From: a virus | Taxonomy: Duplodnaviria; Caudoviricetes | Length of the DNA stretch: 64,000 nucleotides | Direction: 5' to 3' (one strand) | IMG/VR virus record: IMGVR_UViG_3300028603_000025 | Coordinates: 34,936 to 98,935 of that record | Part shown: piece by piece, positions 4,914 to 34,994 of the stretch | Position numbering within the stretch: position 1 is the stretch's first letter | How the letters are laid out: every line of letters starts with the position of its first letter | Position numbers and translations under genes: made by a program | The notes under the pieces: model-generated | The model's database searches: none | Told to the model about the DNA's origin: nothing | Seen by the model: only the letters and a program-made list of their open reading frames with translations

Positions 4914-5667
4914 TAAGAAGCTTACCGTGGTTATTCCGACCACGTTATCTCCTGACGTATATGATTTACTGGATAACCTGAAAGGAAACGTTCCTGACCA
5001 GACTCTGATTTATCTGGTGATAGATGGTCAGGAACACCTTGACGAAGATTCAAAGATAAAGATAGCGTCGGCCCGAGCCAGATTTCAGGAACGGAACGGA
5101 GTTGAATTATATGAGATAGTTCTTCCTTTCTCTATCGGGAAGGGAGGATGGTACGGTCATAGAGCAATAGCAGGCTTTGCTCATATGATAAATACTCCGT
5201 ATGTTACGTTCATTGACCAGGATAACTTGGTTGATGCGTTTCATTTCGTGACTCTTTTAGAACTGCTTGAGAAATACGAAGACCTTCCGTTTGCTTATTC
5301 TCATCGAACCATCATCGATAAACAGGGCCGTGACATATGTCTTGACGAATGTGAATCGTTGGGATATAAGCCTATCATGGGTAATGAACAGAACGGCTAT
5401 CTGGTTGATACCTCGTCGTGGGTATATAGAAGACAGTTCATTGAACAGAACGGACATATCTGGCACCATGGGTGGGGAGCAGACCGAAGGTTTACTATGG
5501 CAGTTCGTAATGGGGTCGGTCCAGAAATGATGGAGAAAGCATGTACCAAACTCCCGTCATTATTATACAGGGTAGCAGGAAACGCAAATTCAGTGACCCC
5601 TGAATTCTTTATAACCGGAAACTCAAAAATTAAACTTCTGGAGAACAAAAATGTCAGTCCTGATTAG
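4906..5667 (+). CDS. family 2 (GT-A) glycosyltransferase
   Basis: LTVVIPT, LVIDG, FIDQDN (DxD), VDTSS and GWGADRRF; start moved to the ATG at 4906 behind an AGGAG RBS. Confidence 0.85.
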   Translation: MSDKKLTVVIPTTLSPDVYDLLDNLKGNVPDQTLIYLVIDGQEHLDEDSKIKIASARARFQERNGVELYEIVLPFSIGKGGWYGHRAIAGFAHMINTPYVTFIDQDNLVDAFHFVTLLELLEKYEDLPFAYSHRTIIDKQGRDICLDECESLGYKPIMGNEQNGYLVDTSSWVYRRQFIEQNGHIWHHGWGADRRFTMAVRNGVGPEMMEKACTKLPSLLYRVAGNANSVTPEFFITGNSKIKLLENKNVSPD

Positions 5668-5866
5668 AGCAGAAGATGCACGCAAAAAGGCTTTACGATT
5701 CATTGATTCAAACTTCAAACAGTTGTTGTTTAACGCTATAGAGAACGGAGATCTGTTTCTCATGATTTCGGAACCATACTGGCCATCTGAAGAATTGTTA
5801 GTAGAACTGGACAATCTCGGATACTCTATTTATCAGGACGGAGATACCCTGGAGATAAGCTGGTGA
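5651..5866 (+). CDS. hypothetical protein
   Basis: 71 aa ORF with GGAG RBS, overlapping both neighbours. Confidence 0.6.
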   Translation: MSVLIRAEDARKKALRFIDSNFKQLLFNAIENGDLFLMISEPYWPSEELLVELDNLGYSIYQDGDTLEISW

Positions 5867-6693
5867 TAATCATTACCGGAGTCGATGGTTTTATCGGAGC
5901 ATATGCCGCCAATACCTTCAAGAATGCAGGATATCGCGTTCTTGGGTTTGGTCAGAACTCGGTCAAGTCAGTAGGATTCTATGTAGATAGATATAAGACT
6001 GATATAAAAGCCATCCTCCATTTTGGAGCAATATCGTCAACCGATTCCACGAACCAAGAAGAAGTATTCAAATGGAACGTGGAATCGACTATAAATGATA
6101 TCCTTTATCCGGCTCAGAAGTATAATATTCCTATACATTTTGCTTCTTCGGCGTCTATATACGGTAACGTATCAAAGTATTGGTTTACAGAAACCGATGA
6201 GCCGAATCCGAACAGTATATATGCCGAATCAAAACTGACGTGCGAAACCGTTCTGAGTCTGTACGAGAAAGCATTCATATTCCGATATTTCAACGTCTAT
6301 GCCGATAATCCCAGATGGGAATGGCATAAACATCAGCCTTCTCCCCATACAGGATTCGTTAAGCAGCTATCCACCCAAGGAATAATAAGGCTGTTTGATG
6401 GATCAGAGAATATCTATCGAGATTTCGTTAACGTCGTAGACGTCGTGGAATATCATCTTGAATTCGTCAAGAGGTCTCATAAACCGGGCATCTATAACGT
6501 CGGATCAGGAAGTTTAACCTCGTTTCAGGAAGTAGCTATTGACGTCTTAAATAAGTTCGGGTATTCTCCTGTTCTTATAAGAGAGATAGCGTTTCCGGAA
6601 AAGCTGAAGAAATACTATCAGTATCGGACGCTTGCAAATATAAGTAAGATAACACAGGAGATTCTATATGATTTTGGTAACAGGCTGCTTTGA
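5863..6693 (+). CDS. hldD: ADP-L-glycero-D-manno-heptose 6-epimerase-like (extended SDR)
   Basis: IIITGVDGFIG, HFGAISST, ASSASIYG, YAESK (YxxxK), RYFNVY, RDFV and YQYRTLANISK. Confidence 0.88.
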   Translation: MIIITGVDGFIGAYAANTFKNAGYRVLGFGQNSVKSVGFYVDRYKTDIKAILHFGAISSTDSTNQEEVFKWNVESTINDILYPAQKYNIPIHFASSASIYGNVSKYWFTETDEPNPNSIYAESKLTCETVLSLYEKAFIFRYFNVYADNPRWEWHKHQPSPHTGFVKQLSTQGIIRLFDGSENIYRDFVNVVDVVEYHLEFVKRSHKPGIYNVGSGSLTSFQEVAIDVLNKFGYSPVLIREIAFPEKLKKYYQYRTLANISKITQEILYDFGNRLL

Positions 6694-7081
6694 TATTATT
6701 CACCGAGGCCATATTGAACTATTCGAGTACGCAAATGTCTTAGCTAAGAGAGGAGAATATTCGGAACCGATATTCGTCTTGGTTGACTCCGATGCTCGAG
6801 TAAAACGCAATAAAGGAATCGAGAGACCTGTAAATAATCAGGACGATAGGAGATATGTCTTATCCGGAATGAAAGGACTTCAGGCGTCACGGATAATGAT
6901 TTTCGATACTGATGAAGAACTAGTTGACGTCTGTGGAGATTTTAATCCCTTGAGAATAGTCGGCTCAGATTACAAAGGCCGCACGATTATCGGGGGAGAA
7001 CACTGTAGGAAAATCGAATATTTTGAAAGACTTGAAAATTATTCAACCACAAAAACAATCAATGAACTTACTAAAGCCTGA
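6668..7081 (+). CDS. heptose-1-phosphate nucleotidyltransferase (HldE/RfaE domain II)
   Basis: TGCFDIIHRGH (HxGH), DSDARVKRNKGIERPVN, VGSDY and YSTT. Confidence 0.88.
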   Translation: MILVTGCFDIIHRGHIELFEYANVLAKRGEYSEPIFVLVDSDARVKRNKGIERPVNNQDDRRYVLSGMKGLQASRIMIFDTDEELVDVCGDFNPLRIVGSDYKGRTIIGGEHCRKIEYFERLENYSTTKTINELTKA

Positions 7082-7916
7082 AGAAGTATTAATAATCGGG
7101 GATACCTGCCGGGACCATAATCTAATCGGGGAAGTATCCGGTTTGTCGCCCGAAGCCCCGATTCCTATTTTAACCAATCCGCGACATGACCTGAGTCTAG
7201 GTATGTCGTACAACTTTGTCCGTAATCTGGAAAGGTTCTTTAAAGGTGTTCCGATTCCTGACGAGAACCTGTTGTTTAGCAAACATCCTTCTGATATCTG
7301 GAACTACATGGATGAACGTTCCGGGCAGAAACTGTTACGAGTAGACAAGATTAATAAACTGTTTCCTGAAGTGTTAACATTTGATAAGGTGTCTCAAAGG
7401 GTTCATGATAAAATCAAGGTAATCATTGCGATTGACTACGATACCGGGTTCCTGACCAGTTCGCTACTTTCTGAGATAGCGGTTCAGTACGGTTCCTCAA
7501 AGTATCTGTATATTGATACCCGGAAACCGAATCTGACCCACCTTCAGGGATGGAAGATAAAGATTAACGATATCGAGGCCGCAAAAGCAAGGAAGGCAAC
7601 CAAGGGATTCGATGACCTTGATTTAATCGTGACCCACGGTAAAGAAGGTTCAGAAACACATGACCTGTTTGTTCATCAGAAGAATAAAGTAGATGCGCGG
7701 GACGTAACCGGGTGCGGAGAAACCTGGTTAGCTACCTTCATTTATATGTACCATTCTGATGATATCGTTAAGGCGCTGACTTGTGGTCAGCATGATTTGG
7801 AAGAAGTAATGAACCTCGCCAATCTTTCAGCATCGATTACTGCATCACACGTAGGAACGTATGCGCCAACCGTAAAAGAAATAGTTGATTTGTATTTGAA
7901 GACCAAAGGAGTTTAA
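7062..7916 (+). CDS. heptose-7-phosphate kinase (HldE/RfaE domain I, PfkB family)
   Basis: LIIGD, LSPEAPIPI, QKLLRVD, DYDTGFL, KIN and DVTGCGETW (cf. DVTGAGDT). Confidence 0.85.
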   Translation: MNLLKPEEVLIIGDTCRDHNLIGEVSGLSPEAPIPILTNPRHDLSLGMSYNFVRNLERFFKGVPIPDENLLFSKHPSDIWNYMDERSGQKLLRVDKINKLFPEVLTFDKVSQRVHDKIKVIIAIDYDTGFLTSSLLSEIAVQYGSSKYLYIDTRKPNLTHLQGWKIKINDIEAAKARKATKGFDDLDLIVTHGKEGSETHDLFVHQKNKVDARDVTGCGETWLATFIYMYHSDDIVKALTCGQHDLEEVMNLANLSASITASHVGTYAPTVKEIVDLYLKTKGV

Positions 7917-8609: not shown

Positions 8610-11195
8610 ATGAACCTTTACACAGATGTATTCCAGTATAAAAACAAACTCCTGGTAAGAAATATCGAGGGTCTGAAGGAAGTTAAATTCAGACCTTCTT
8701 TATTCATACCTACCAAGAACGAAACAGAATATACGAACATGTTCGGGAAGAATCTCCGACAGGTTCAGTTCGATAAGATATCTGACATGCGGGATTACCG
8801 GAAACAGTATCAGGATATTCAGGATATCCATGGTAACTATAGCGCAGTCACCCAGTATCTTCATTCGACGTATCGTTCTGATATCGAATATGACTTGACG
8901 AAAGTCATTATCTATTCGATTGATATCGAGACCACGACAGAGAAAGGATTTCCGAACCCAGAACTCCCGGAAGAAGAGATTAACGTTATTACCATGACCG
9001 ATGTAGTCACGGATAAGGCTATCACATTAACGACCTTGGATGCTGACTTGAATCAGATAAAGAAGAAGTATCCATTTGCCAAGGTAATGGTCATGGAGAA
9101 CGAAGTTGAGTTAATCAAGAAGTTCATCTTCCTGTTCTCGCGTAGATATCCACATATCCTGACATCCTATAACGGGGAAGGCTTTGATATTCCGTACCTG
9201 ACTAATCGTGCCCTGGGAATCGTACCAGAAGCCTATTTTAAACGTTTATCGCCGTGGGGACTGGTCCGTGCATCAGAAATCCTTGATCCGATGACCAAGG
9301 AGAAGAAAGTAAATTATGAATGGATTGGAATTCAGTTAATCGATTACCTTCCTTTGTATAAGAAGTTCTCCCAGGCGTCCCCGGAAGATTACAAGTTGGA
9401 TACCGTGGCAAATCATGAACTGGGAGAGAACAAGGTAGAGAATCCGTACGACACGTTTCAGGAGTTCTATGAGAAATCTCCGACCCTGTTCGTTGAATAT
9501 AATATCAAGGATGCTTTGCTTATTAACAGACTGGACCGGAAACGTAAGCTACTGGCTCAGATTGTTGATACCGCATATTACGCAAAGGTTAACTACATAG
9601 ACGTGTTCAAACCGATGCGGGTATGGGATTCATTGATTCACGACTATTTGTATCAACAGAACGTAATCGTCCATAACCCCCCGAAAAAGAAACTTACCGA
9701 GAAGATTATCGGGGCCGCGGTAAAGGAACCGGTACCGGGGATATACGACTGGACAGTATCGTTTGATGCAAAGGCACTATATCCCAGCATAGCACGGTCG
9801 TTAAATATGTCTCCCGAAACAGTAGTGAATACCGAATCGATATTTGAGAACGCTATCGACGGAATAGACAGACTGTTAGAAGGATACGAAGAAACCGAGG
9901 ACCTGAAGAAGAATAACTACTCGTTATCCGCGAACGGATTCTATTTCAGGCGAGATAAGATGGGACTGTTTCCGACCATGTTCTCTCGAATAGGAAAACG
10001 TCGTGACGACGCAAAGAACCGAATGCTTGAACTAGATGCTTTCATACAGGCTAATCCGGACAAGGCCACTGATGAAATGAGGAACGAGAAGGAAACCATG
10101 AATTCAAAACAGGGTTCTTCTAAGATTCTGAACAACTCAGGTTATGGCGTTATGGCAGCCGAACACTTCCGGTTCTTTGATACCAGGATATCAGAAGGAA
10201 TCACGGCTACCGGACAGTTTGTTATCAAGACAGCAGAACAGTTCCTGAATAAAAGACTGAACGAATACTTTAAGACCGAAGGAATCGATTACGTTCTTTA
10301 CTCGGATACTGACTCGTTGTTTGTTAAGTTCGGGGGAGTTCTTTCGGATAAGGTAAAGAAGGAAAAAAGTAGCCAGGAAATCACCAACTTCCTTGATAAG
10401 TTTGCAAAGACCTATCTTGCCGATGTTCTGGAAGAGGCCATGAACGATATCGGGACCCGGTTAAACGTGTTCGAGAATCATCTTTACTTTAAACGTGAGA
10501 TGATTAATCAGAATCATCTGATGTATAAGAAGAAGAAGTATGCGTGTGCCTTGATTGATTCAGAAGGCGTAAGATATCAGAATCCAGAAATCAAGGTAAA
10601 GGGAATCGAGATTGTCAGAAGAACAACCCCGATGGTGGTGAGGAAGTATCTTAAGACCAGCGTAAACAAGATGCTGATAGAGGGATATGATTCGTTTCTG
10701 GAATACTTTGAAGAAATAAGGGATTCGTGGAATGACCACGATTACAAGGATATCCTTCTGGGAATAGGTAATAACGGAATGGACGTTTATTCGACTACAG
10801 ACGATAAAGGAGAAGATGGGATAGAAGAAAAAGAGAACGAATCTGGACTTGATATGATTGAAAAGTATCAGGATGATGGTAAAGTATATAAGAAAGGTAC
10901 GCCGTATCATATCAAGGCTTCTTTGATTTATAATCATAAAATCAAAGAGTTAGGCTTGGATAAGAAATATCCTTTGATACAGAACAGGGATAAGGTAAAG
11001 ATAGCATTCCTGAAGATGCCGAACAAGCTGATGGTTGATACGATAGCCTTTCCGGATAAGTTGCCAGTAGAATTTGAAGTAGAAAGTCTGATTGATTACG
11101 AAAGGCATTTTGAGAAGACCTATCTGAGTACTATTAAAAGGCTATCTGATGCTATCGGATGGAAGTTAGAAAGAAGTTATTCATTATTTGATTAG
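8610..11195 (+). CDS. gp43: family B DNA polymerase
   Basis: Exonuclease motifs DIET, YNGEGFDIPY and YNIKD; polymerase motifs SFDAKALYPSI, KILNNSGYG, YSDTDS and KKKY; C-terminal clamp-binding SLFD. Confidence 0.98.
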   Translation: MNLYTDVFQYKNKLLVRNIEGLKEVKFRPSLFIPTKNETEYTNMFGKNLRQVQFDKISDMRDYRKQYQDIQDIHGNYSAVTQYLHSTYRSDIEYDLTKVIIYSIDIETTTEKGFPNPELPEEEINVITMTDVVTDKAITLTTLDADLNQIKKKYPFAKVMVMENEVELIKKFIFLFSRRYPHILTSYNGEGFDIPYLTNRALGIVPEAYFKRLSPWGLVRASEILDPMTKEKKVNYEWIGIQLIDYLPLYKKFSQASPEDYKLDTVANHELGENKVENPYDTFQEFYEKSPTLFVEYNIKDALLINRLDRKRKLLAQIVDTAYYAKVNYIDVFKPMRVWDSLIHDYLYQQNVIVHNPPKKKLTEKIIGAAVKEPVPGIYDWTVSFDAKALYPSIARSLNMSPETVVNTESIFENAIDGIDRLLEGYEETEDLKKNNYSLSANGFYFRRDKMGLFPTMFSRIGKRRDDAKNRMLELDAFIQANPDKATDEMRNEKETMNSKQGSSKILNNSGYGVMAAEHFRFFDTRISEGITATGQFVIKTAEQFLNKRLNEYFKTEGIDYVLYSDTDSLFVKFGGVLSDKVKKEKSSQEITNFLDKFAKTYLADVLEEAMNDIGTRLNVFENHLYFKREMINQNHLMYKKKKYACALIDSEGVRYQNPEIKVKGIEIVRRTTPMVVRKYLKTSVNKMLIEGYDSFLEYFEEIRDSWNDHDYKDILLGIGNNGMDVYSTTDDKGEDGIEEKENESGLDMIEKYQDDGKVYKKGTPYHIKASLIYNHKIKELGLDKKYPLIQNRDKVKIAFLKMPNKLMVDTIAFPDKLPVEFEVESLIDYERHFEKTYLSTIKRLSDAIGWKLERSYSLFD

Positions 11196-11203
11196 GAGAA
11201 AGA

Positions 11204-12112
11204 ATGTCGATTCTTGACAAGATTAAAAAGAATAGTACCATTGGTTTAACATCAACGATTTCAGAATCCACGGTGCTTCTGGATAAGTTTGAAATACCCA
11301 CGAGCATACCTGCAATGAACATAGCATTGTCAGGTAGTCTTAAAGGAGGAATCACGGGAGGAACGACGATATTTGCAGGGGAGTCAAAACGATTCAAATC
11401 GATGTATTCGTTGTTCTTGGTATCAGAATACATGAAGTCGTTTCCGGAATCGGTCTGTATCTTCTATGACTCAGAGTTCGGAACTCCATTAAGCTATTTT
11501 GAGAAGATGGGAATCGACCTTGACAGGGTAGTTCATTGTCCGATTACTGATATCGACCAACTGAAGCATGACATAGTAGTTCAGCTAACAGAACTCGAAA
11601 GGAAAGACAGAGTAGTAGTCATGATTGATAGTATCGGAAATCTAGCCAGTAAGAAAGAACTGGATGACTCGATAGAAGGAAAATCTGCAGCAGACTTTAC
11701 CCGTGCAAAAACGTTAAAGGCGATGTTTAGACAGATTACGCCTATTCTGGCTGTTAAGGATATTCCGCTGATAGCGATTAATCATACCTATAAGGAAATC
11801 GGAATGTTTCCCAAGGATATACAATCGGGGGGTTGTCTGGAAGGGGGGACTAAGATAATCATGTCAGACGGCAGCACAAAAGCTATCGAAGACGTAAAGG
11901 TAGGCGACATGGTTAAAACTCTCGGGGGTGAAAATGAAGTATATGCGGTCTGGGACCCTGAAACTTTAGACGAGGGTGAACCTGAATGTTATCGGGTAAC
12001 ATTTGAAGACGGCAACTCTTACACCTGCTCCGCCAATCACAGATATAAAATCGGAGAGGAATGGGTTAAGGCAAAAGACCTTGTTGAAAATGACGATGTT
12101 GTTGCCATCTAG
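11204..12112 (+). CDS. uvsX: UvsX recombinase N-terminal part (210 aa) fused to a split-intein N-fragment (92 aa)
   Basis: AGESKRFKS, FYDSEFG, IDSIGNLASKKE and INHTY...QSGG, then CLEGGTKI... Hint-N sequence to the stop. Confidence 0.95.
   Translation: MSILDKIKKNSTIGLTSTISESTVLLDKFEIPTSIPAMNIALSGSLKGGITGGTTIFAGESKRFKSMYSLFLVSEYMKSFPESVCIFYDSEFGTPLSYFEKMGIDLDRVVHCPITDIDQLKHDIVVQLTELERKDRVVVMIDSIGNLASKKELDDSIEGKSAADFTRAKTLKAMFRQITPILAVKDIPLIAINHTYKEIGMFPKDIQSGGCLEGGTKIIMSDGSTKAIEDVKVGDMVKTLGGENEVYAVWDPETLDEGEPECYRVTFEDGNSYTCSANHRYKIGEEWVKAKDLVENDDVVAI
11834..12109 (+). mobile_element. split intein N-fragment (IntN) in UvsX
   Basis: Block A CLEGGTKIIMSDG..KAIEDVKVGD.V, block B CSANHR and WVKAKDL; acidic. 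Confidence 0.92.
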
Positions 12113-13385
12113 GGAAATAGCGCAGGAAATCTCCAGATTCTATATGGAAACTTTCGGGGTGGAAATTAAACCGACCCGAAAGTTTGTCTTAGTTGGTAAA
12201 GGGATGATTGAACTCGAAAACAAAACGTTAAATGACGTAATTCAGCGACATTTCGAGTTCATCAAGGCCAGGAAAAATTGTCCTGTCTCATGGATGGCGA
12301 ATTACGGGGCCTCCTACGAAGATGCGTTAATCTATAGTGAATCCCCAAATGGATATAGGGTTTGTCTTAATTGTGGAGTGATTTATAAATCGGAGAACAA
12401 CAGGTCGGGCTGCTGCTCCGAGAAATGTAGAGCAGAAAGGAAGACGCATACGTTTGTTCCTGAATATAGAGCCAAGAAAAACGGAATACCTATTCAACAA
12501 GCTATCGACGAAGTAAATGCCATCATGGCAAAGAAGGATAGTAAATCGTCGAAGTATTTCGAGAGTAAAGGATTCAGTCCGGAAGAGGCCAAGAAACTTT
12601 CTTCCGAAACACAGGCGAAAAGGAGCAAACGCACCATTGAGTATTTTACTTCGCGGGGATGTTCTTACGAAGAAGCCGTGGAGGAAAGAGCAAAGTACCA
12701 AAAAGATAAAGCAGATATCAGGTCTGCTAAGTATACCAAAGAAGAGCTTAGGATAATGAATCCCTGGAGCGATGAATTTTGGATGAACAAGGGATACTCG
12801 TTAGCAGAGGCAAAGGAAATAAAGTCTGGGTTTTTTAAAAAAGGAGCTGATGCCTATCTCTCTTTGCCGAGAGGGGTGCGACTGTCGAACAACCATCTAC
12901 ATTATTCTTACTGGAAGAAAAGATTTCCTGATTCGTGGGAAGAGAAATACGCTGACCACATGAAGGAGATTTATCATAAATCAGGAAGAGGGGTGTCGTC
13001 GATAGCAAAGGAATTTTGTTATTCTTTGCATGGTAAATTTGACTTCTGTTCCAATGTGTACTATTATCCTGATGAATTTGGTAAGTTAATCAAGGAAAGC
13101 AAGAAGTACGTATTTTACGATTATGTTGATACGAGGAGAATGGTATGTGTAGAATTTAACGGAAACTGGTGGCATGCAAATCCGGAGACCTATTCCCCAG
13201 ATGATATTCTTATGGGAAAGACGGCTTCTGAAATCTGGAAAAGAGATGCAATCAAATTACAGACCATCGAAGATTTTGGATTTCGGACGTTCGTAGTCTG
13301 GGAAAAGGACTACAAGAAAAACAAAGAAGAAGTGATTCAAACCATTTACGAGGAGATTATTCTGCATGAAAATAGCAAAAATTGA
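12090..13385 (+). CDS. free-standing Vsr/DUF559-like (PD-(D/E)xK) homing endonuclease
   Basis: C-terminal YDYVD...VEFNGNWWH...RDAIK...GFRTFVVWEKD; Cys cluster CLNC...CCSEKC; repeated YFxSxG.S.EEA helices; lies between the two uvsX halves; start at ATG 12090 or 12096. Confidence 0.85.
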   Translation: MTMLLPSREIAQEISRFYMETFGVEIKPTRKFVLVGKGMIELENKTLNDVIQRHFEFIKARKNCPVSWMANYGASYEDALIYSESPNGYRVCLNCGVIYKSENNRSGCCSEKCRAERKTHTFVPEYRAKKNGIPIQQAIDEVNAIMAKKDSKSSKYFESKGFSPEEAKKLSSETQAKRSKRTIEYFTSRGCSYEEAVEERAKYQKDKADIRSAKYTKEELRIMNPWSDEFWMNKGYSLAEAKEIKSGFFKKGADAYLSLPRGVRLSNNHLHYSYWKKRFPDSWEEKYADHMKEIYHKSGRGVSSIAKEFCYSLHGKFDFCSNVYYYPDEFGKLIKESKKYVFYDYVDTRRMVCVEFNGNWWHANPETYSPDDILMGKTASEIWKRDAIKLQTIEDFGFRTFVVWEKDYKKNKEEVIQTIYEEIILHENSKN

Positions 13386-13470
13386 AAAGGTAGGTAAAAG
13401 AAAGGTTTATGATATATCAGTTAAGGAAGTGGAACATTACATTTTAGATAACGGGGTAGTGTCCCATAAC
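13366..13470 (+). mobile_element. split intein C-fragment (IntC) in UvsX
   Basis: Block F VYDISV and block G SHN, with Thr as the +1 residue; basic. Confidence 0.93.
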
Positions 13471-13842
13471 ACTTCTGTTCAATACAGCCCAAATTCGGTT
13501 TTCTTTGTCGGAAGAGAACAGGTTAAAGAAGGAACCCAGGTAGTCGGATACAAATTTAACCTTACGATAGAGAAATCCAGACGGGTGCGGGAGAAATCAA
13601 AACTACCAATTGAGGTATCATTTGAAGAAGGCATCAACAAATGGTCTTCCCTTCTGGATATCGCCCTTGAACTTGGTCTGGTAATCGCACCGACTAAAGG
13701 ATGGTATTCCCGGGTAATCGAAGGCGTGGTGGAAGAAAAGAAATGGCGGCGGAAGGATACAGATAATAACGATTTCTGGGATGTATTATTGGAGGACCCT
13801 GAATTTGAAGCAGGAATTAACAAACTGTATCGTTTAGAGTAA
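13366..13842 (+). CDS. uvsX: split-intein C-fragment (35 aa) fused to UvsX C-terminal part (123 aa)
   Basis: MKIAKIEKVGKRKVYDISV...NGVVSHN then TSVQYSPNSVFFVGREQ, EKSRRVREKS, GGI-like EGINKWS and PTKGWY; own GAGGAG RBS at 13350. Confidence 0.95.
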   Translation: MKIAKIEKVGKRKVYDISVKEVEHYILDNGVVSHNTSVQYSPNSVFFVGREQVKEGTQVVGYKFNLTIEKSRRVREKSKLPIEVSFEEGINKWSSLLDIALELGLVIAPTKGWYSRVIEGVVEEKKWRRKDTDNNDFWDVLLEDPEFEAGINKLYRLE

Positions 13843-13851
13843 TAAGAGTTG

Positions 13852-13889
13852 ACAGGTCGATAAAGTTTACTATTCCTTCATCGACCTGT
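13852..13889. terminator. inverted repeat after uvsX-C overlapping a TTGACA hexamer
   Basis: acaggtcgat (13852-61) and atcgacctgt (13880-89) form a perfect 10-bp stem. Confidence 0.45.
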
Positions 13890-13969
13890 AGGAGAATAAA
13901 AGAGACAAAGAGACAAAGAGTGTGCGTTAAACAATCAGGAAGAAAAATATTAAACAAAAGGAAATTAAC

Positions 13970-14869
13970 ATGAAATACGGCATTCCTTACATGGGAAGTA
14001 AGCGAGCTATCGCTGGCAAACTAATCTCTTTTATGAAAGAACGACATCCCAATGCAACACACTTCTATGACTTATTTGGTGGAGGTGGCGCCATGTCTTT
14101 TGCTGCATTAGAAGCTGGGTTGAACGTACATTACAATGAGCTAAATACAGCAATTGTAGAATTGTTAAAGAAGATTCAGACAGATGGTGTTACTCCTGAG
14201 TTTTACGAGTGGGTGTCAAGAGAACAATTCCATAAACTAAAAACAGGAAATGATTGGAAAGCTGGTGTTATACAGACGTGTTGGAGCTTTGGTAATAGAG
14301 GAGACGACTATTTGTATAGTGAAAAGAACGAAGCTTTAAAATATCCTATTCACATGCTTATCGTACATCCTTGTGAAGAGCATTTGTCTATTGTAAATAA
14401 TCTTTTTGATGGTTGTATCCCCGAGGATGTGTTGCATTTACAAACAATCAATGAAAGAAGGTCGCTTGTTACAAAAATATTGAAGAAACGTGTTGATCAT
14501 TTCCAATTGCAGCATTTAGGAGCAGTTAATAGACTAGAACATTTAGAGCAATTAAACAGATTACCTAAAGGATACGTTCCTTTCACTATCACAAACGAAA
14601 GCTATGAAAATGTAAACATCACATCTTCCCCCGAAGAAACAATTGTGTATTGTGATATCCCTTATGCTGATACGAGAAAATACATATTAGGTGCATTCAA
14701 TCAACATGCGTATGCAGAATGGGCCACATCATCTAAATATCATGTGTACACTTCTAGCTACAACATTGACATGCCTTGTGTTTATCAATTAGATAAACGA
14801 TGTACATTTTCATCAACAAACAACTCCAAAAAAACAGTAGAAAAGCTATTTTACAATAAAAGACATTAA
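13970..14869 (+). CDS. Dam-like (D12 class) DNA adenine methyltransferase
   Basis: PYMGSK, DLFGGGGAMS, YNELN and YCDIPY (DPPY variant); more AT-rich than its neighbours. Confidence 0.85.
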   Translation: MKYGIPYMGSKRAIAGKLISFMKERHPNATHFYDLFGGGGAMSFAALEAGLNVHYNELNTAIVELLKKIQTDGVTPEFYEWVSREQFHKLKTGNDWKAGVIQTCWSFGNRGDDYLYSEKNEALKYPIHMLIVHPCEEHLSIVNNLFDGCIPEDVLHLQTINERRSLVTKILKKRVDHFQLQHLGAVNRLEHLEQLNRLPKGYVPFTITNESYENVNITSSPEETIVYCDIPYADTRKYILGAFNQHAYAEWATSSKYHVYTSSYNIDMPCVYQLDKRCTFSSTNNSKKTVEKLFYNKRH

Positions 14870-15194: not shown

Positions 15195-15507
15195 TGAAAC
15201 CATGGAAACTGATGATAACGACAAAATCTATTCTGTTCATGCCGTGGGAGAACAACTGGGATTCAAAATCAATTCTGGTCCGTACGAAGCAACCGTCTGC
15301 ACAATAGAATTCGGAGAAGTTTTTGATGACGACGGAATCCTGGAATTCAATGTCAACTATATTGCGCTTCCAGAGCACCTGGGAAAGAAAATCATCGATG
15401 ACCCGATGTTCAACGAGACAATTCAGTTCATTATCAACGAAATAGTAAACGACGCCTTTCAATATGCTATCGACAACAATTCTGAAGAACCTGATTCACA
15501 ATCCTGA
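15184..15507 (+). CDS. acidic protein in the T4 gene 40 position (conserved upstream of gp41)
   Basis: ATG at 15184 with GAAGGA RBS; KINSGPYE...LEFNVN...FNETIQFIINEIV; overlaps the gp41 start. Confidence 0.55.
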   Translation: METDETMETDDNDKIYSVHAVGEQLGFKINSGPYEATVCTIEFGEVFDDDGILEFNVNYIALPEHLGKKIIDDPMFNETIQFIINEIVNDAFQYAIDNNSEEPDSQS

Positions 15508-17224
15508 ATACTCGGTAAAGGTAATATCCTACCTTCTGCCTGAGTATTTTGATAACCGATTAGAATCCATGCTTATGGAAGAGATAACCAGCTTTGTTTC
15601 AAAGTACGATTCCCTTCCTTCAGAAGATGCATTAAAGATTATGGTTCAGGAACGGGACTCGTCCATATCCCGAAAGGAAATAGAAGACAAGTTCTCGTCT
15701 TTCCTTAAACTGGAGGAAGAAAAGAACCTGGAATGGCTGGTTGATTCTACCGAGAAGTTCTGTCAGGATGCAGCCTTACGTAATGCTATTCTGAAGAGTG
15801 TCGATATCGTGGAAGGCAACGAGGAATCCCTGACCAAGGAATCTATTCCTGATATCCTGAAAGATGCGCTTTCAGTCGGCTTCGATACTTCTATCGGTCA
15901 TAATTACTTTGAGGATGCCGAATCTCGGTTGGAATTCAATACTTCAGAAGTAATCAGGCTTCCAATCGGCATCGATAAAATCGACAAGATAACCAAGGGC
16001 GGACTTAAACCAAAGACCCTGACTATCTTCTATGCAGGCTGTGTCCATCCGAAAACCACGGTTCACGTTCGTATAAATAATAAAACCAAGATATGTTTCA
16101 TTGGGGAAATCAAAGAATTTTTGGAACGATATGACCTGGTTGAAGTAGAATCCCCTGATGGATGGGTAAAGGTTTCAGAGTATGTGGAGAAAGGTGAATA
16201 TGAAGAATATCAACTTAACCTGACAAATACCTATACTGAATTCCCGACCAGAACAAATTCAGAGCACCTTTACGAGACTACCTTGGGATGGTATTCAGCA
16301 GAACAACTATCAGAGATGGAAGAAGGATTACATTTCCTGGCCAGAAAAGGATATGAACACGGTTACGTCACCCGAAACCCAGGTTCAAAAATACCGATAG
16401 TTGATATACTTGTAGACCACCCGAATCACAGGTATTATACCGATAACGTATCAAGTCATAATACCGGGGTAGGAAAGACCCATTTCATGTGCGCCATTGC
16501 CGCGAACCTGATTCGGGACGGAAAGAACGTTCTATATATCTCCATGGAAATGTACGAGGAGGCTATCGGAGAACGTATCGACGCTAACCTGATTGATATC
16601 GATATCGGGGAAGTCTATCTTAACCCCAACAGGTTTCTGAAGCGATTAAATCACGTAAAGGAAAAGAGTAAAGGCGGATTGGTCATAAAGGAATACCCAA
16701 CCTGTTCAGCCAGCACCGCTGACTTTGAAAGACTACTTGATGAACTCAAGATAAAGAAAGGATTTGTTCCCGAACTAATCTGTGTTGATTACATGAGTAT
16801 CTGTAAGAGTAGGAGATATAAAGTAGCCGGAACAAACTCGTATACCTACGTGAAAGGAATCTCAGAAGAACTAAGGGCCATGGCTCAAAAGTATAACGTG
16901 GCCGTGATTACAGGGGCACAGGTTAATCGTGGAGGATTTGGTGCCGAGAAGATAGAAATGACCGATGCCGCCGAAAGCTTTGGTGGTAACTTTATCGCAG
17001 ACTTGGTTCTGGGTTTAAACATAGACAAGAACAATCCTGACAAGGACACCATGATAGTTTCCCAGCTCAAGAACCGGTATTCCAGTATCGATAACATGAG
17101 TAAGTTCCTGGTCAGGATAGACCGGTCAAAGATGCGGGTAATAAACGAAGAAGAGTTTGAGGAACAAGAAGAAGCAATCTTGAAAGAAAAAGACAAATTA
17201 CGAAGCAGGTATCTAAAGAAATAA
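15464..17224 (+). CDS. gp41: replicative DNA helicase containing a mini-intein
   Basis: TEKFCQD, SVGFDTSIGHNYF, AG|TGVGKT Walker A split by the intein, YISMEM, IKEYPT, VDY, AQVNR, ESFG and KNRY. Confidence 0.97.
   Translation: MLSTTILKNLIHNPEYSVKVISYLLPEYFDNRLESMLMEEITSFVSKYDSLPSEDALKIMVQERDSSISRKEIEDKFSSFLKLEEEKNLEWLVDSTEKFCQDAALRNAILKSVDIVEGNEESLTKESIPDILKDALSVGFDTSIGHNYFEDAESRLEFNTSEVIRLPIGIDKIDKITKGGLKPKTLTIFYAGCVHPKTTVHVRINNKTKICFIGEIKEFLERYDLVEVESPDGWVKVSEYVEKGEYEEYQLNLTNTYTEFPTRTNSEHLYETTLGWYSAEQLSEMEEGLHFLARKGYEHGYVTRNPGSKIPIVDILVDHPNHRYYTDNVSSHNTGVGKTHFMCAIAANLIRDGKNVLYISMEMYEEAIGERIDANLIDIDIGEVYLNPNRFLKRLNHVKEKSKGGLVIKEYPTCSASTADFERLLDELKIKKGFVPELICVDYMSICKSRRYKVAGTNSYTYVKGISEELRAMAQKYNVAVITGAQVNRGGFGAEKIEMTDAAESFGGNFIADLVLGLNIDKNNPDKDTMIVSQLKNRYSSIDNMSKFLVRIDRSKMRVINEEEFEEQEEAILKEKDKLRSRYLKK
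16040..16462 (+). mobile_element. contiguous mini-intein (141 aa) in the gp41 P-loop
   Basis: Begins CVHPKT, has TNSEHL, ends IVDILV...YYTDNVSSHN with Thr +1; no endonuclease domain. Confidence 0.92.
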
Positions 17225-34769: not shown

Positions 34770-34994
34770 ATGAGAAGAACCAAAGAACGCATGCCCAAGC
34801 AACCCGACGGAACCAAATACAACTGGGGCTATAACGACGGACTCAATGCATCATCAATGAAAAATCCGATTCATAGAAACTGGAAAGGAAAAGATGGAAT
34901 CCTTCGTCACTTTGATGAAGCCTATGTAAACGGATACATCGCCGGATATGCTAAGAGTACAGGAACTGTTCTGACTGTGCTGATTCAGGATTGA
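34770..34994 (+). CDS. hypothetical early protein
   Basis: AAAGGA RBS and ATG at 34770; YNWGYNDG...AYVNGYIAGY. Confidence 0.7.
   Translation: MRRTKERMPKQPDGTKYNWGYNDGLNASSMKNPIHRNWKGKDGILRHFDEAYVNGYIAGYAKSTGTVLTVLIQD

Follow-up and report, generated by a model that had tools for sequence, protein, structure and literature searches.

How can a T4-like phage make a complete UvsX recombinase when the gene for it is divided into two separate genes? The question is raised by the IMG/VR virus record IMGVR_UViG_3300028603_000025 (Duplodnaviria; Caudoviricetes), of which we analyzed positions 34,936 to 98,935, a stretch of 64,000 nucleotides (nt) hereafter called the window, whose own coordinates are used throughout. 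According to the open reading frame (ORF) list and the raw sequence, uvsX is represented there by three overlapping genes, all on the + strand: an N-terminal UvsX piece (N-extein) fused to the N-terminal half of an intein (IntN), an endonuclease gene, and a C-terminal intein half (IntC) fused to the remainder of UvsX (C-extein). Very probably, uvsX of this uncultured T4-like phage is a 'fractured gene', consisting of two genes that each carry one half of a split intein together with a homing-endonuclease gene, in a layout that is real and looks functional.

Organization of the uvsX locus

The anatomy and frames of the N-half, C-half and endonuclease ORFs were read from the ORF list and the raw sequence. 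The N-half ORF (11204-12112; 302 amino acids [aa]) begins behind an AGGAG ribosome-binding site at 11194-11198. Its residues 1-210 (11204-11833) form the N-extein, a RecA core with a Walker A motif that ends in the L2-loop region ...MFPKDIQSGG, after which the frame reads CLEGGTKIIMSDG...TCSANH...DDVVAI. This continuation is IntN (11834-12112; 92 aa and a TAG stop), which runs from CLEGG to VVAI, starts with Cys1, contains the block B motif S-A-N-H, and is acidic, with a computed net charge of -12 and an isoelectric point (pI) of 4.25. The IntC start lies 1253 nt beyond the IntN stop codon. The C-half ORF (13366-13842; 158 aa) starts MKIAKIEKVGKRKVYDISVKEVEHYILDNGVVSHN, then TSVQYSPNSVFFVGREQ..., and is preceded by a GAGGAG Shine-Dalgarno sequence, read at 13350-13355 within the 3' end of the endonuclease gene, 10 nt upstream of the ATG. 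Its first 35 aa (13366-13470), MKIAK...VVSHN, constitute IntC, with a basic N-terminus, a computed pI of 9.16, block F VYDISV..EHY and block G VVSHN. The sequence then proceeds through T-SVQYS... into the C-extein (13471-13842; 123 aa and a stop), which begins with Thr+1 (TSVQYSPNSVFF...) and is without the acidic tail of T4 UvsX. The expected spliced product would comprise 210 + 123 = 333 aa (37.5 kDa), with the junction peptide DIQSGGTSVQYSPNSVFFVGR, and the excised IntN and IntC would be fragments of 10.2 and 4.0 kDa.

The free-standing endonuclease gene (431 aa; 12090-13385, with an alternative start at ATG 12096) overlaps the 3' end of IntN by ~17-23 nt and the 5' end of IntC by 20 nt. 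An earlier reading of this DNA (the original prediction) had placed it between the halves; its middle position is confirmed, but it does not simply lie between them, because it overlaps both. Every number and sequence feature in that prediction, from the coordinates, the IntN and IntC sizes, and the acidic or basic character of the halves to the ribosome-binding site, the gap, and the 333-aa product, agreed with the ORF list, the sequence, and the computed values. Promoter and terminator scans of the locus returned counts at or below chance, and we therefore make no claim on separate transcription.

Intein signatures in the two inserts

Profile searches indicated that the two inserts are halves of an intein. 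IntC matched the NCBIfam model TIGR01443 (intein_Cterm) at 27.5 bits against a cut-off of 15.6 (residues 13-36), and IntN matched TIGR01445 (intein_Nterm) at 22.7 bits against a cut-off of 24.5 (residues 211-280), with additional matches below cut-off to Pfam Hom_end_hint, Vint, and Hint over its first 40-70 residues. In a single-sequence search, the gp41-1 split intein was the nearest solved intein (E 1.4e-4). A profile built from eight IntN alleles (A5) again found gp41-1 (6qaz) as its best intein match (E 3e-9), with DnaB mini-inteins and PI-SceI ranking next, and a profile built from eight IntC alleles (A6) aligned over the whole length of the Npu DnaE IntC (4lx3_B; 36 aa; E 8e-6), ahead of Mxe GyrA and the Neq Pol IntC. 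The top PDB match of the IntN profile, the designed repeat protein 'Tako8', was disregarded, as it summed short repeats with no stretch significant alone. The split falls at the canonical endonuclease-insertion point, the halves are two ORFs, and the 35-aa IntC matches that of Npu DnaE over its full length.

The residues that would carry out splicing are conserved. Cys211, which is intein residue 1 and stands right after ...QSGG, is invariant in 15 IntN sequences; Ser66 and His69 of the block B S-A-N-H motif are invariant in eight alleles; and IntC ends VVSHN|T, with H34 and N35 invariant in eight sequences. Thus Cys1, the block B Ser-x-x-His, the terminal His-Asn, and Thr/Ser+1 are kept across 15 IntN and 8 IntC sequences that are only ~50% identical overall. 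Since the +1 residue is Thr in seven of eight alleles and Ser in the remaining one, Thr+1, which the original prediction had mentioned for this copy, turns out to be the family norm and no special feature. Where synonymous sites are unsaturated, the ratio of nonsynonymous to synonymous substitution rates (dN/dS) of the intein halves is 0.06-0.4, similar to that of the exteins (phages RPN226 and Thanatos-1: IntN 0.06, N-extein 0.06). In every sequence-level test, the locus behaved as the putative naturally split class-1 intein with a free-standing endonuclease that had been predicted.

The exteins and the insertion point

The two exteins together account for a normal UvsX. The N-extein matches Pfam RecA (1.9e-8) and phrog_97/phrog_8337, the C-extein matches Pfam T4_UVSX_C (6e-15), and both the RecA ATPase core and the T4-type UvsX C-terminal domain are therefore present. 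The structure of T4 UvsX (PDB 3io5) aligns with residues 31-211 of the N half (E 2e-59), up to chain residue 187, and with the C half starting around its residue 36 (E 1.5e-30), corresponding to about chain residue 188, such that the two matches are contiguous.

An IMG/VR scan with the N half returned 80 loci, the closest 75 of which (57-61% extein identity) matched residues 1-211 only. In 74 of these 75, uvsX is uninterrupted and reads ...MFPKDIVGGG|TGSYYSADN... across the insertion point; at the DNA level, an intein-less allele (L040 type) reads GGTGGTGGT|ACAGGT. Because these intein-less relatives read uninterrupted over GG|T, removal of residues 211-302 of the N half and residues 1-35 of the C half would yield a normal UvsX that neither gains nor loses a residue. 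In RecA alignments, the insertion point falls immediately behind the conserved Gly-Gly that comes after MFPKDI, and MFPKDI is the counterpart of the RecA L2-loop region treated in PMC3239194, with RecA numbering being approximate. Beside the junction, the C-extein reads TSVQYSPNSV (13471-13500), compared with TG(S/V/A)(Y/M)YSADN(I/T) in the 74 intein-less relatives and in other intein-bearing alleles, a departure that could reflect adaptation of the extein to the intein or escape from the endonuclease target. The 98.9-kb virus record, estimated to be 59% complete, contains a single uvsX match.

The following sequence of events would answer the opening question. After translation, the acidic IntN and the basic IntC would associate into a canonical HINT fold and perform class-1 protein trans-splicing, starting with an N-S acyl shift at Cys1 and a transesterification onto the Thr+1 hydroxyl. 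Cyclization of the terminal Asn35 of IntC, helped by His34, and an O-N shift would follow, leaving a seamless ...QSGG-TSVQY... bond just past the Gly-Gly after the L2-loop sequence and releasing the recombinase at full length. The endonuclease would serve as the mobility module, cutting the intein-less uvsX of co-infecting phages in the vicinity of the GG|T codons, and recombinational repair of the cut gene would then copy the whole cassette. Both the splicing activity and the endonuclease target are what we infer from sequence.

The same intein in cultured and uncultured phages

Searches of 50,697 phage records with either half (tblastn) revealed that this intein is far from unique. The DNA-level search of the locus against the same records gave no match, and the relatives come from protein-level searches only. 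At least 25 GenBank entries for cultured T4-like phages gave full-length matches that include the intein parts; the hosts of these phages belong to Escherichia, Salmonella, Shigella, Klebsiella, Enterobacter, Proteus, Yersinia, Pseudomonas, Shewanella, and Vibrio. Carriers include Yersinia phage TG1 (KP202158), E. coli phages RPN226 (OL770073) and HY03, Salmonella phage pSe_SNUABM_01, Proteus phages Pm5461 and PM2, Shewanella phage Thanatos-1 (MT457552), and Vibrio phage VmeM-32; alignments of TG1, RPN226, and Thanatos-1 show identical GG|C...HN|T junctions. The cultured-phage inteins occupy the same site with a 92-96/35 aa split and are 49-55% (IntN) and 60-66% (IntC) identical to those of the window, whereas their middle gene is of the GIY-YIG or NUMOD3 type rather than Vsr-like, and their UvsX exteins are only ~50% identical and possess an acidic C-terminal tail that is missing here. 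In these records, both halves are annotated as 'RecA-like recombination protein' and the middle gene as 'GIY-YIG homing endonuclease' or 'hypothetical'. PHROGs likewise holds the halves as separate families, phrog_8337 and phrog_18112, the latter spanning IntC and the C-extein from position 1. The original prediction had described the layout as one known from metagenomic phage sequence; the precedent is correct (PMC2677866), but the layout is neither confined to metagenomes nor rare.

Five metagenomic loci carry the uvsX intein with other middle genes: an HNH + NUMOD3 gene in L036, a NUMOD3 remnant in L037 and L039, and none in L035 and L038, the last of which has Ser+1. The remnant in L037/L039 (4884-5861) encodes 148 aa of a NUMOD3 endonuclease in frame with IntC and the C-extein, from which no stop codon separates it; IntC still has its own Met at nt 5334. 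Because middle genes differ or are absent among loci, the split intein is the stable part and the endonuclease gene the part that turns over. The Vsr-like gene occurs at the uvsX site only in this window among the loci examined. In pairwise comparisons, intein identity tracks extein identity, which suggests a long co-residence of the intein with UvsX; the nearest extein relatives of the window are without the intein, and therefore loss or homing must also have occurred.

Weighing trans-splicing against its alternatives

Several observations count against functional trans-splicing at this locus. On IntN, the scores for TIGR01445 and the Pfam intein models are slightly under their curated cut-offs, block B carries Ser where most inteins carry Thr (a conservative variant), and conservation of the block F His breaks down in three related alleles. 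The TSVQYSPNS junction departs from the family consensus TGSYYSADN, which may affect splicing, and the dN/dS values are rough because synonymous sites are near saturation in most pairs. Splicing of this and every other uvsX allele is something that we infer from conserved residues only. Finally, as the record is 59% complete, the phage may have a second, intact recombinase gene elsewhere.

One alternative accepts that the halves meet and disputes what they do, treating them as a dimerization module only, by which the UvsX pieces are held non-covalently, without a peptide bond. The charge complementarity of IntN and IntC would be enough for association, and phage Aeh1 provides a precedent in its NrdA, which is split by a homing endonuclease (mobE) and reassembled by interaction domains without splicing (PMC3045599). 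We nevertheless regard this as quite unlikely, because the residues that serve chemistry only (Cys1, the block B His, the penultimate His, the terminal Asn, and the +1 nucleophile) are kept despite ~50% divergence, and an unspliced 127-aa intein right behind the L2 region would probably disturb the filament. It is even harder to believe that the locus is decaying or non-functional, with the endonuclease insertion having broken a contiguous intein in a phage that lives without UvsX or with another recombinase. Both halves are intact ORFs with their own ribosome-binding sites and zero frameshifts or stops, dN/dS of the intein halves is well below 1 where it can be estimated, and many viable cultured phages have kept the split layout, as have the five further metagenomic loci, two of them without any endonuclease gene; these facts stand against the absence of the intein from the closest extein relatives and the room that an incomplete record leaves for another recombinase. 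That the two halves are united as RNA or during translation (by a group I intron, trans-splicing, or ribosomal bypass), with incidental intein motifs, is scarcely credible: group I introns and a translational bypass element do occur in T4-like phages, and recA group I introns host Vsr-like endonucleases (PMC2677866, PMC3239194), but a search of both strands of 11000-14000 gave no Rfam match at E<=1, group I introns included, a single intact 431-aa ORF in a different frame fills the intervening 1.25 kb, and the intein motifs, which match intein profiles, are located exactly where the exteins end.

A protein trans-splicing intein is thus the reading that we prefer, and it can be extended. Tentatively, and with more doubt than conviction, we propose that the split intein at the uvsX GG|T site is old, persists by vertical descent, provides a landing pad where unrelated endonuclease genes insert (Vsr-like here; GIY-YIG, HNH, and NUMOD-type elsewhere; none in two loci), and would be an efficient Cys1/Thr+1 trans-splicer orthogonal to DnaE and gp41-1. 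In a bolder version of this proposal, conditional splicing (e.g., redox-sensitive at Cys1) would time recombinase activity in infection.

The endonuclease and its relatives

The endonuclease frame is open from 12003 to 13385; its stop codon (13383-13385) lies 20 nt inside the IntC gene, and the IntN stop occupies 12110-12112. Homologues align from 'REIAQEISRFY' onward, and an AlphaFold2 (AF2) model from ATG 12090 has a mean predicted local distance difference test score (pLDDT) of 93.7 and is confident from residue 7, in a helix. Because of this alignment start and the fold from residue 7, translation most plausibly begins at ATG 12090 or 12096. A start at ATG 12144 or 12204, which would have placed an RNA hairpin in the 5' untranslated region in the manner of Dassa et al., was rejected, since the alignment with homologues reaches upstream of 12144 and the fold of the AF2 model already sets in at residue 7 of the 12090 start. 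The hairpin in question (12148-12185, + strand) has 11 bp and a stability of -19.2 kcal/mol (z -3.8; 1 of 200 shuffles as stable) and begins ~55 nt into the endonuclease gene; folding of the wider region around it was not significant. The hairpins of Dassa et al. lie upstream of such endonuclease genes, whereas this one is inside the coding region, where it possibly attenuates endonuclease expression.

Sequence searches with the endonuclease yielded a weak match to Pfam REase_MTES_1575 and phrog_22677, and a direct search against PDB sequences, 3r3p included, found no match. Its kinship with Vsr and I-Bth0305I therefore comes from the predicted fold. For the whole 431-aa model, Foldseek E-values were weak, and the Z-scores given here derive from re-alignment with VIA-align. 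The C-terminal Vsr-like domain (residues 297-431; ~12978-13385) superposed on Vsr 1cw0 with Z 11.0 and a root-mean-square deviation of 3.6 over 118 residues, on 1vsr with Z 9.9, on the I-Bth0305I catalytic domain 3r3p with Z 9.4 over 97/97 residues, and on the DUF559-like NGO0050 (3hrl) with Z 9.9. The nuclease domain is accordingly modeled with a Vsr-type fold, derived from PD-(D/E)xK. An exhaustive HMMER search with the endonuclease collected 4204 representatives at E<=1e-3, and in an alignment of 65 family members, D344, E355, G358, and H362 are invariant and E329, D386, K389, and W404 nearly so, with E329 and D386 conserved in >=90%. Its motifs YDYVD, VEFNGxWWH, W.RD..K, and VVWE appear to parallel Vsr motifs. 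I-Bth0305I has a composite 'EDxHD' active site (PMC3239194), and the conserved residues of the window's endonuclease match it at the sequence level (Glu, Asp, an extra acidic residue, His as a general base, and Asp). The N-terminal 300 residues are helical, with one Cys-cluster beta-hairpin (~12351-12443) and three to four 'W..[KR]G[FY]S.EEA' repeats, and Pfam detected no NUMOD match in the 431 aa; the Cys-cluster hairpin and helical repeats may constitute a different DNA-binding module.

The genomic context of endonuclease homologues was taken from IMG/VR loci. Relatives occur between the split-intein halves of a family-B DNA polymerase in ten loci (YGDTDS|...HN|S/T), and also within a split-intein terminase and a ribonucleotide-reductase-like gene. 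Others are free-standing directly downstream of RecA-family genes (Pfam RecA 1.8e-11 to 2e-62), as in the loci of the closest relatives (L004/L005) and in L026 and L032, which hints at a clade specialized on recombinase genes. I-Bth0305I itself resides in a recA group I intron and targets L2-loop codons (PMC3239194). Vsr-like endonucleases accompany recombinase genes in three vehicles: the recA intron, a free-standing gene beside recA, and the uvsX split intein. The window's endonuclease would cut intein-less uvsX close to the GG|T codons; indirect signs of homing are the sporadic distribution of the cassette among uvsX genes and the change of middle gene between loci.

Comparison with known systems

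Among solved inteins, gp41-1, which uses Ser+1, is the natural comparison. It shares with the uvsX intein a phage origin, Cys1, and similar fragment sizes (6qaz, 6riz), yet it resides in another host protein at another insertion site, and its similarity is distant and limited to blocks A-B. The fractured-gene layout and its Vsr-like endonuclease family were defined in ocean metagenomes by Dassa, London, Stoddard, Schueler-Furman, and Pietrokovski in 2009 (PMC2677866), for gp41 (gp41-1 to -9), NrdA, NrdJ, IMPDH, DnaE, ligase, terminase, and one unknown enzyme. The present locus has in common with those the same-strand three-gene order, a phage DNA-metabolism host gene, and the canonical split site. 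About half of their loci carry a Vsr-like endonuclease, and gp41-7 is without an endonuclease, like L035 and L038. It differs in that uvsX was merely a neighboring gene there, outside their eight fractured enzyme types, in its Thr+1, and in its endonuclease gene, which overlaps both intein halves here but is preceded by a 27-51-nt non-coding spacer there. Full-text literature searches that paired UvsX with intein terms retrieved no paper describing a split intein in uvsX.

I-Bth0305I (3r3p), the prototype 'EDxHD' Vsr-like homing endonuclease, likewise combines a Vsr-like catalytic domain and a composite acidic/His motif with residence in a recombinase gene, and its target, the L2-loop codons of recA, precedes by a few codons the position that is homologous to the uvsX insertion site (PMC3239194). 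In contrast to the window's endonuclease, which has 431 aa, a Cys-cluster hairpin, and 'WxxxGxSxEEA' helical repeats and sits in a split intein, it has 266 aa and two NUMOD repeats and sits in a group I intron. T4 SegA, a free-standing GIY-YIG endonuclease that is encoded beside uvsX and cleaves it (PMC2988022), is comparable as a mobile endonuclease tied to uvsX, and several relatives of the window's endonuclease are similarly free-standing after recA-family genes; however, uvsX is intact and without an intein in that case, and the nuclease family is another. The mycobacterial RecA and archaeal RadA inteins (PMC4760082) also interrupt RecA-family recombinases but consist of a single piece, in which an internal endonuclease domain may be present or absent; the L2 region of M. 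leprae RecA is a recorded intein site (PMC3239194).

Other inteins and neighboring genes

The window contains a further intein, a contiguous 141-aa mini-intein (16040-16462) at the Walker A loop of the gp41/DnaB helicase gene (15464-17224; ..FYAG|CVHPK...NVSSHN|TGVGKTHF). The idea that the UvsX IntN is a copy of this mini-intein was rejected, as the two have no detectable similarity (BLASTP E 35). In L038 (IMGVR_UViG_2582580669_000004, ~5849-7694), the homologous gp41 intein seems atypically split after a 21-aa IntN, one ORF ending ...AGCVHPETKVKIRYWKHTASLRY* and the next beginning MSLFEEK... 1 nt on; a simple frameshift is excluded by a stop codon in the second frame. A 365-aa metagenomic protein (P0011) is a UvsX middle piece, whose N-terminal ~128 aa are the C part of a second intein, this one occupying the Walker A site (...VHHN|TMLGL...), and whose C-terminal end is an IntN of the same family as that of the window. 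The uvsX of P0011 seems to be encoded in three pieces by two split inteins, the first of which is atypically split. Atypically split inteins termed 'VidaL UvsX' have reportedly been seen in a lake metagenome. VidaL inteins have an IntN of ~16 aa (PMC13014065). A D12-class N6-adenine DNA methyltransferase gene (13970-14869; Pfam 6.7e-13) occupies the interval between uvsX and a small ORF that lies upstream of gp41, the position of T4's gene 40.

Implications

The layout has been known since 2009, and its uvsX version is already widespread in databases, where it has gone unflagged. Particular to the present locus is a ~50%-diverged allele together with a Vsr-like (EDxHD-type) endonuclease at the uvsX site. 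Relative to the 2009 paper, the host gene is new, and relative to the database copies, the pairing of intein and endonuclease is new; the mechanism is not. The diverged Cys1/Thr+1 split inteins of this family (92-103/35-39 aa) could be screened for protein ligation, and use as an orthogonal ligation tool, as the original prediction envisaged, is plausible.

A review of T4 intron homing lists the UvsX recombinase as required for mobility (PMC2988022). That the element fractures the very recombinase listed as needed for T4 intron mobility is conceptually neat, if of limited surprise. With this locus, the phage recombinase UvsX joins the enzymes fractured by split inteins, and the Vsr-like nuclease family is linked to recombinase genes in three contexts. 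A single split-intein site hosts at least three unrelated endonuclease families, a turnover that bears on the model in which an endonuclease invades a mini-intein, and relatives in easily grown coliphages make the 2009 model testable.

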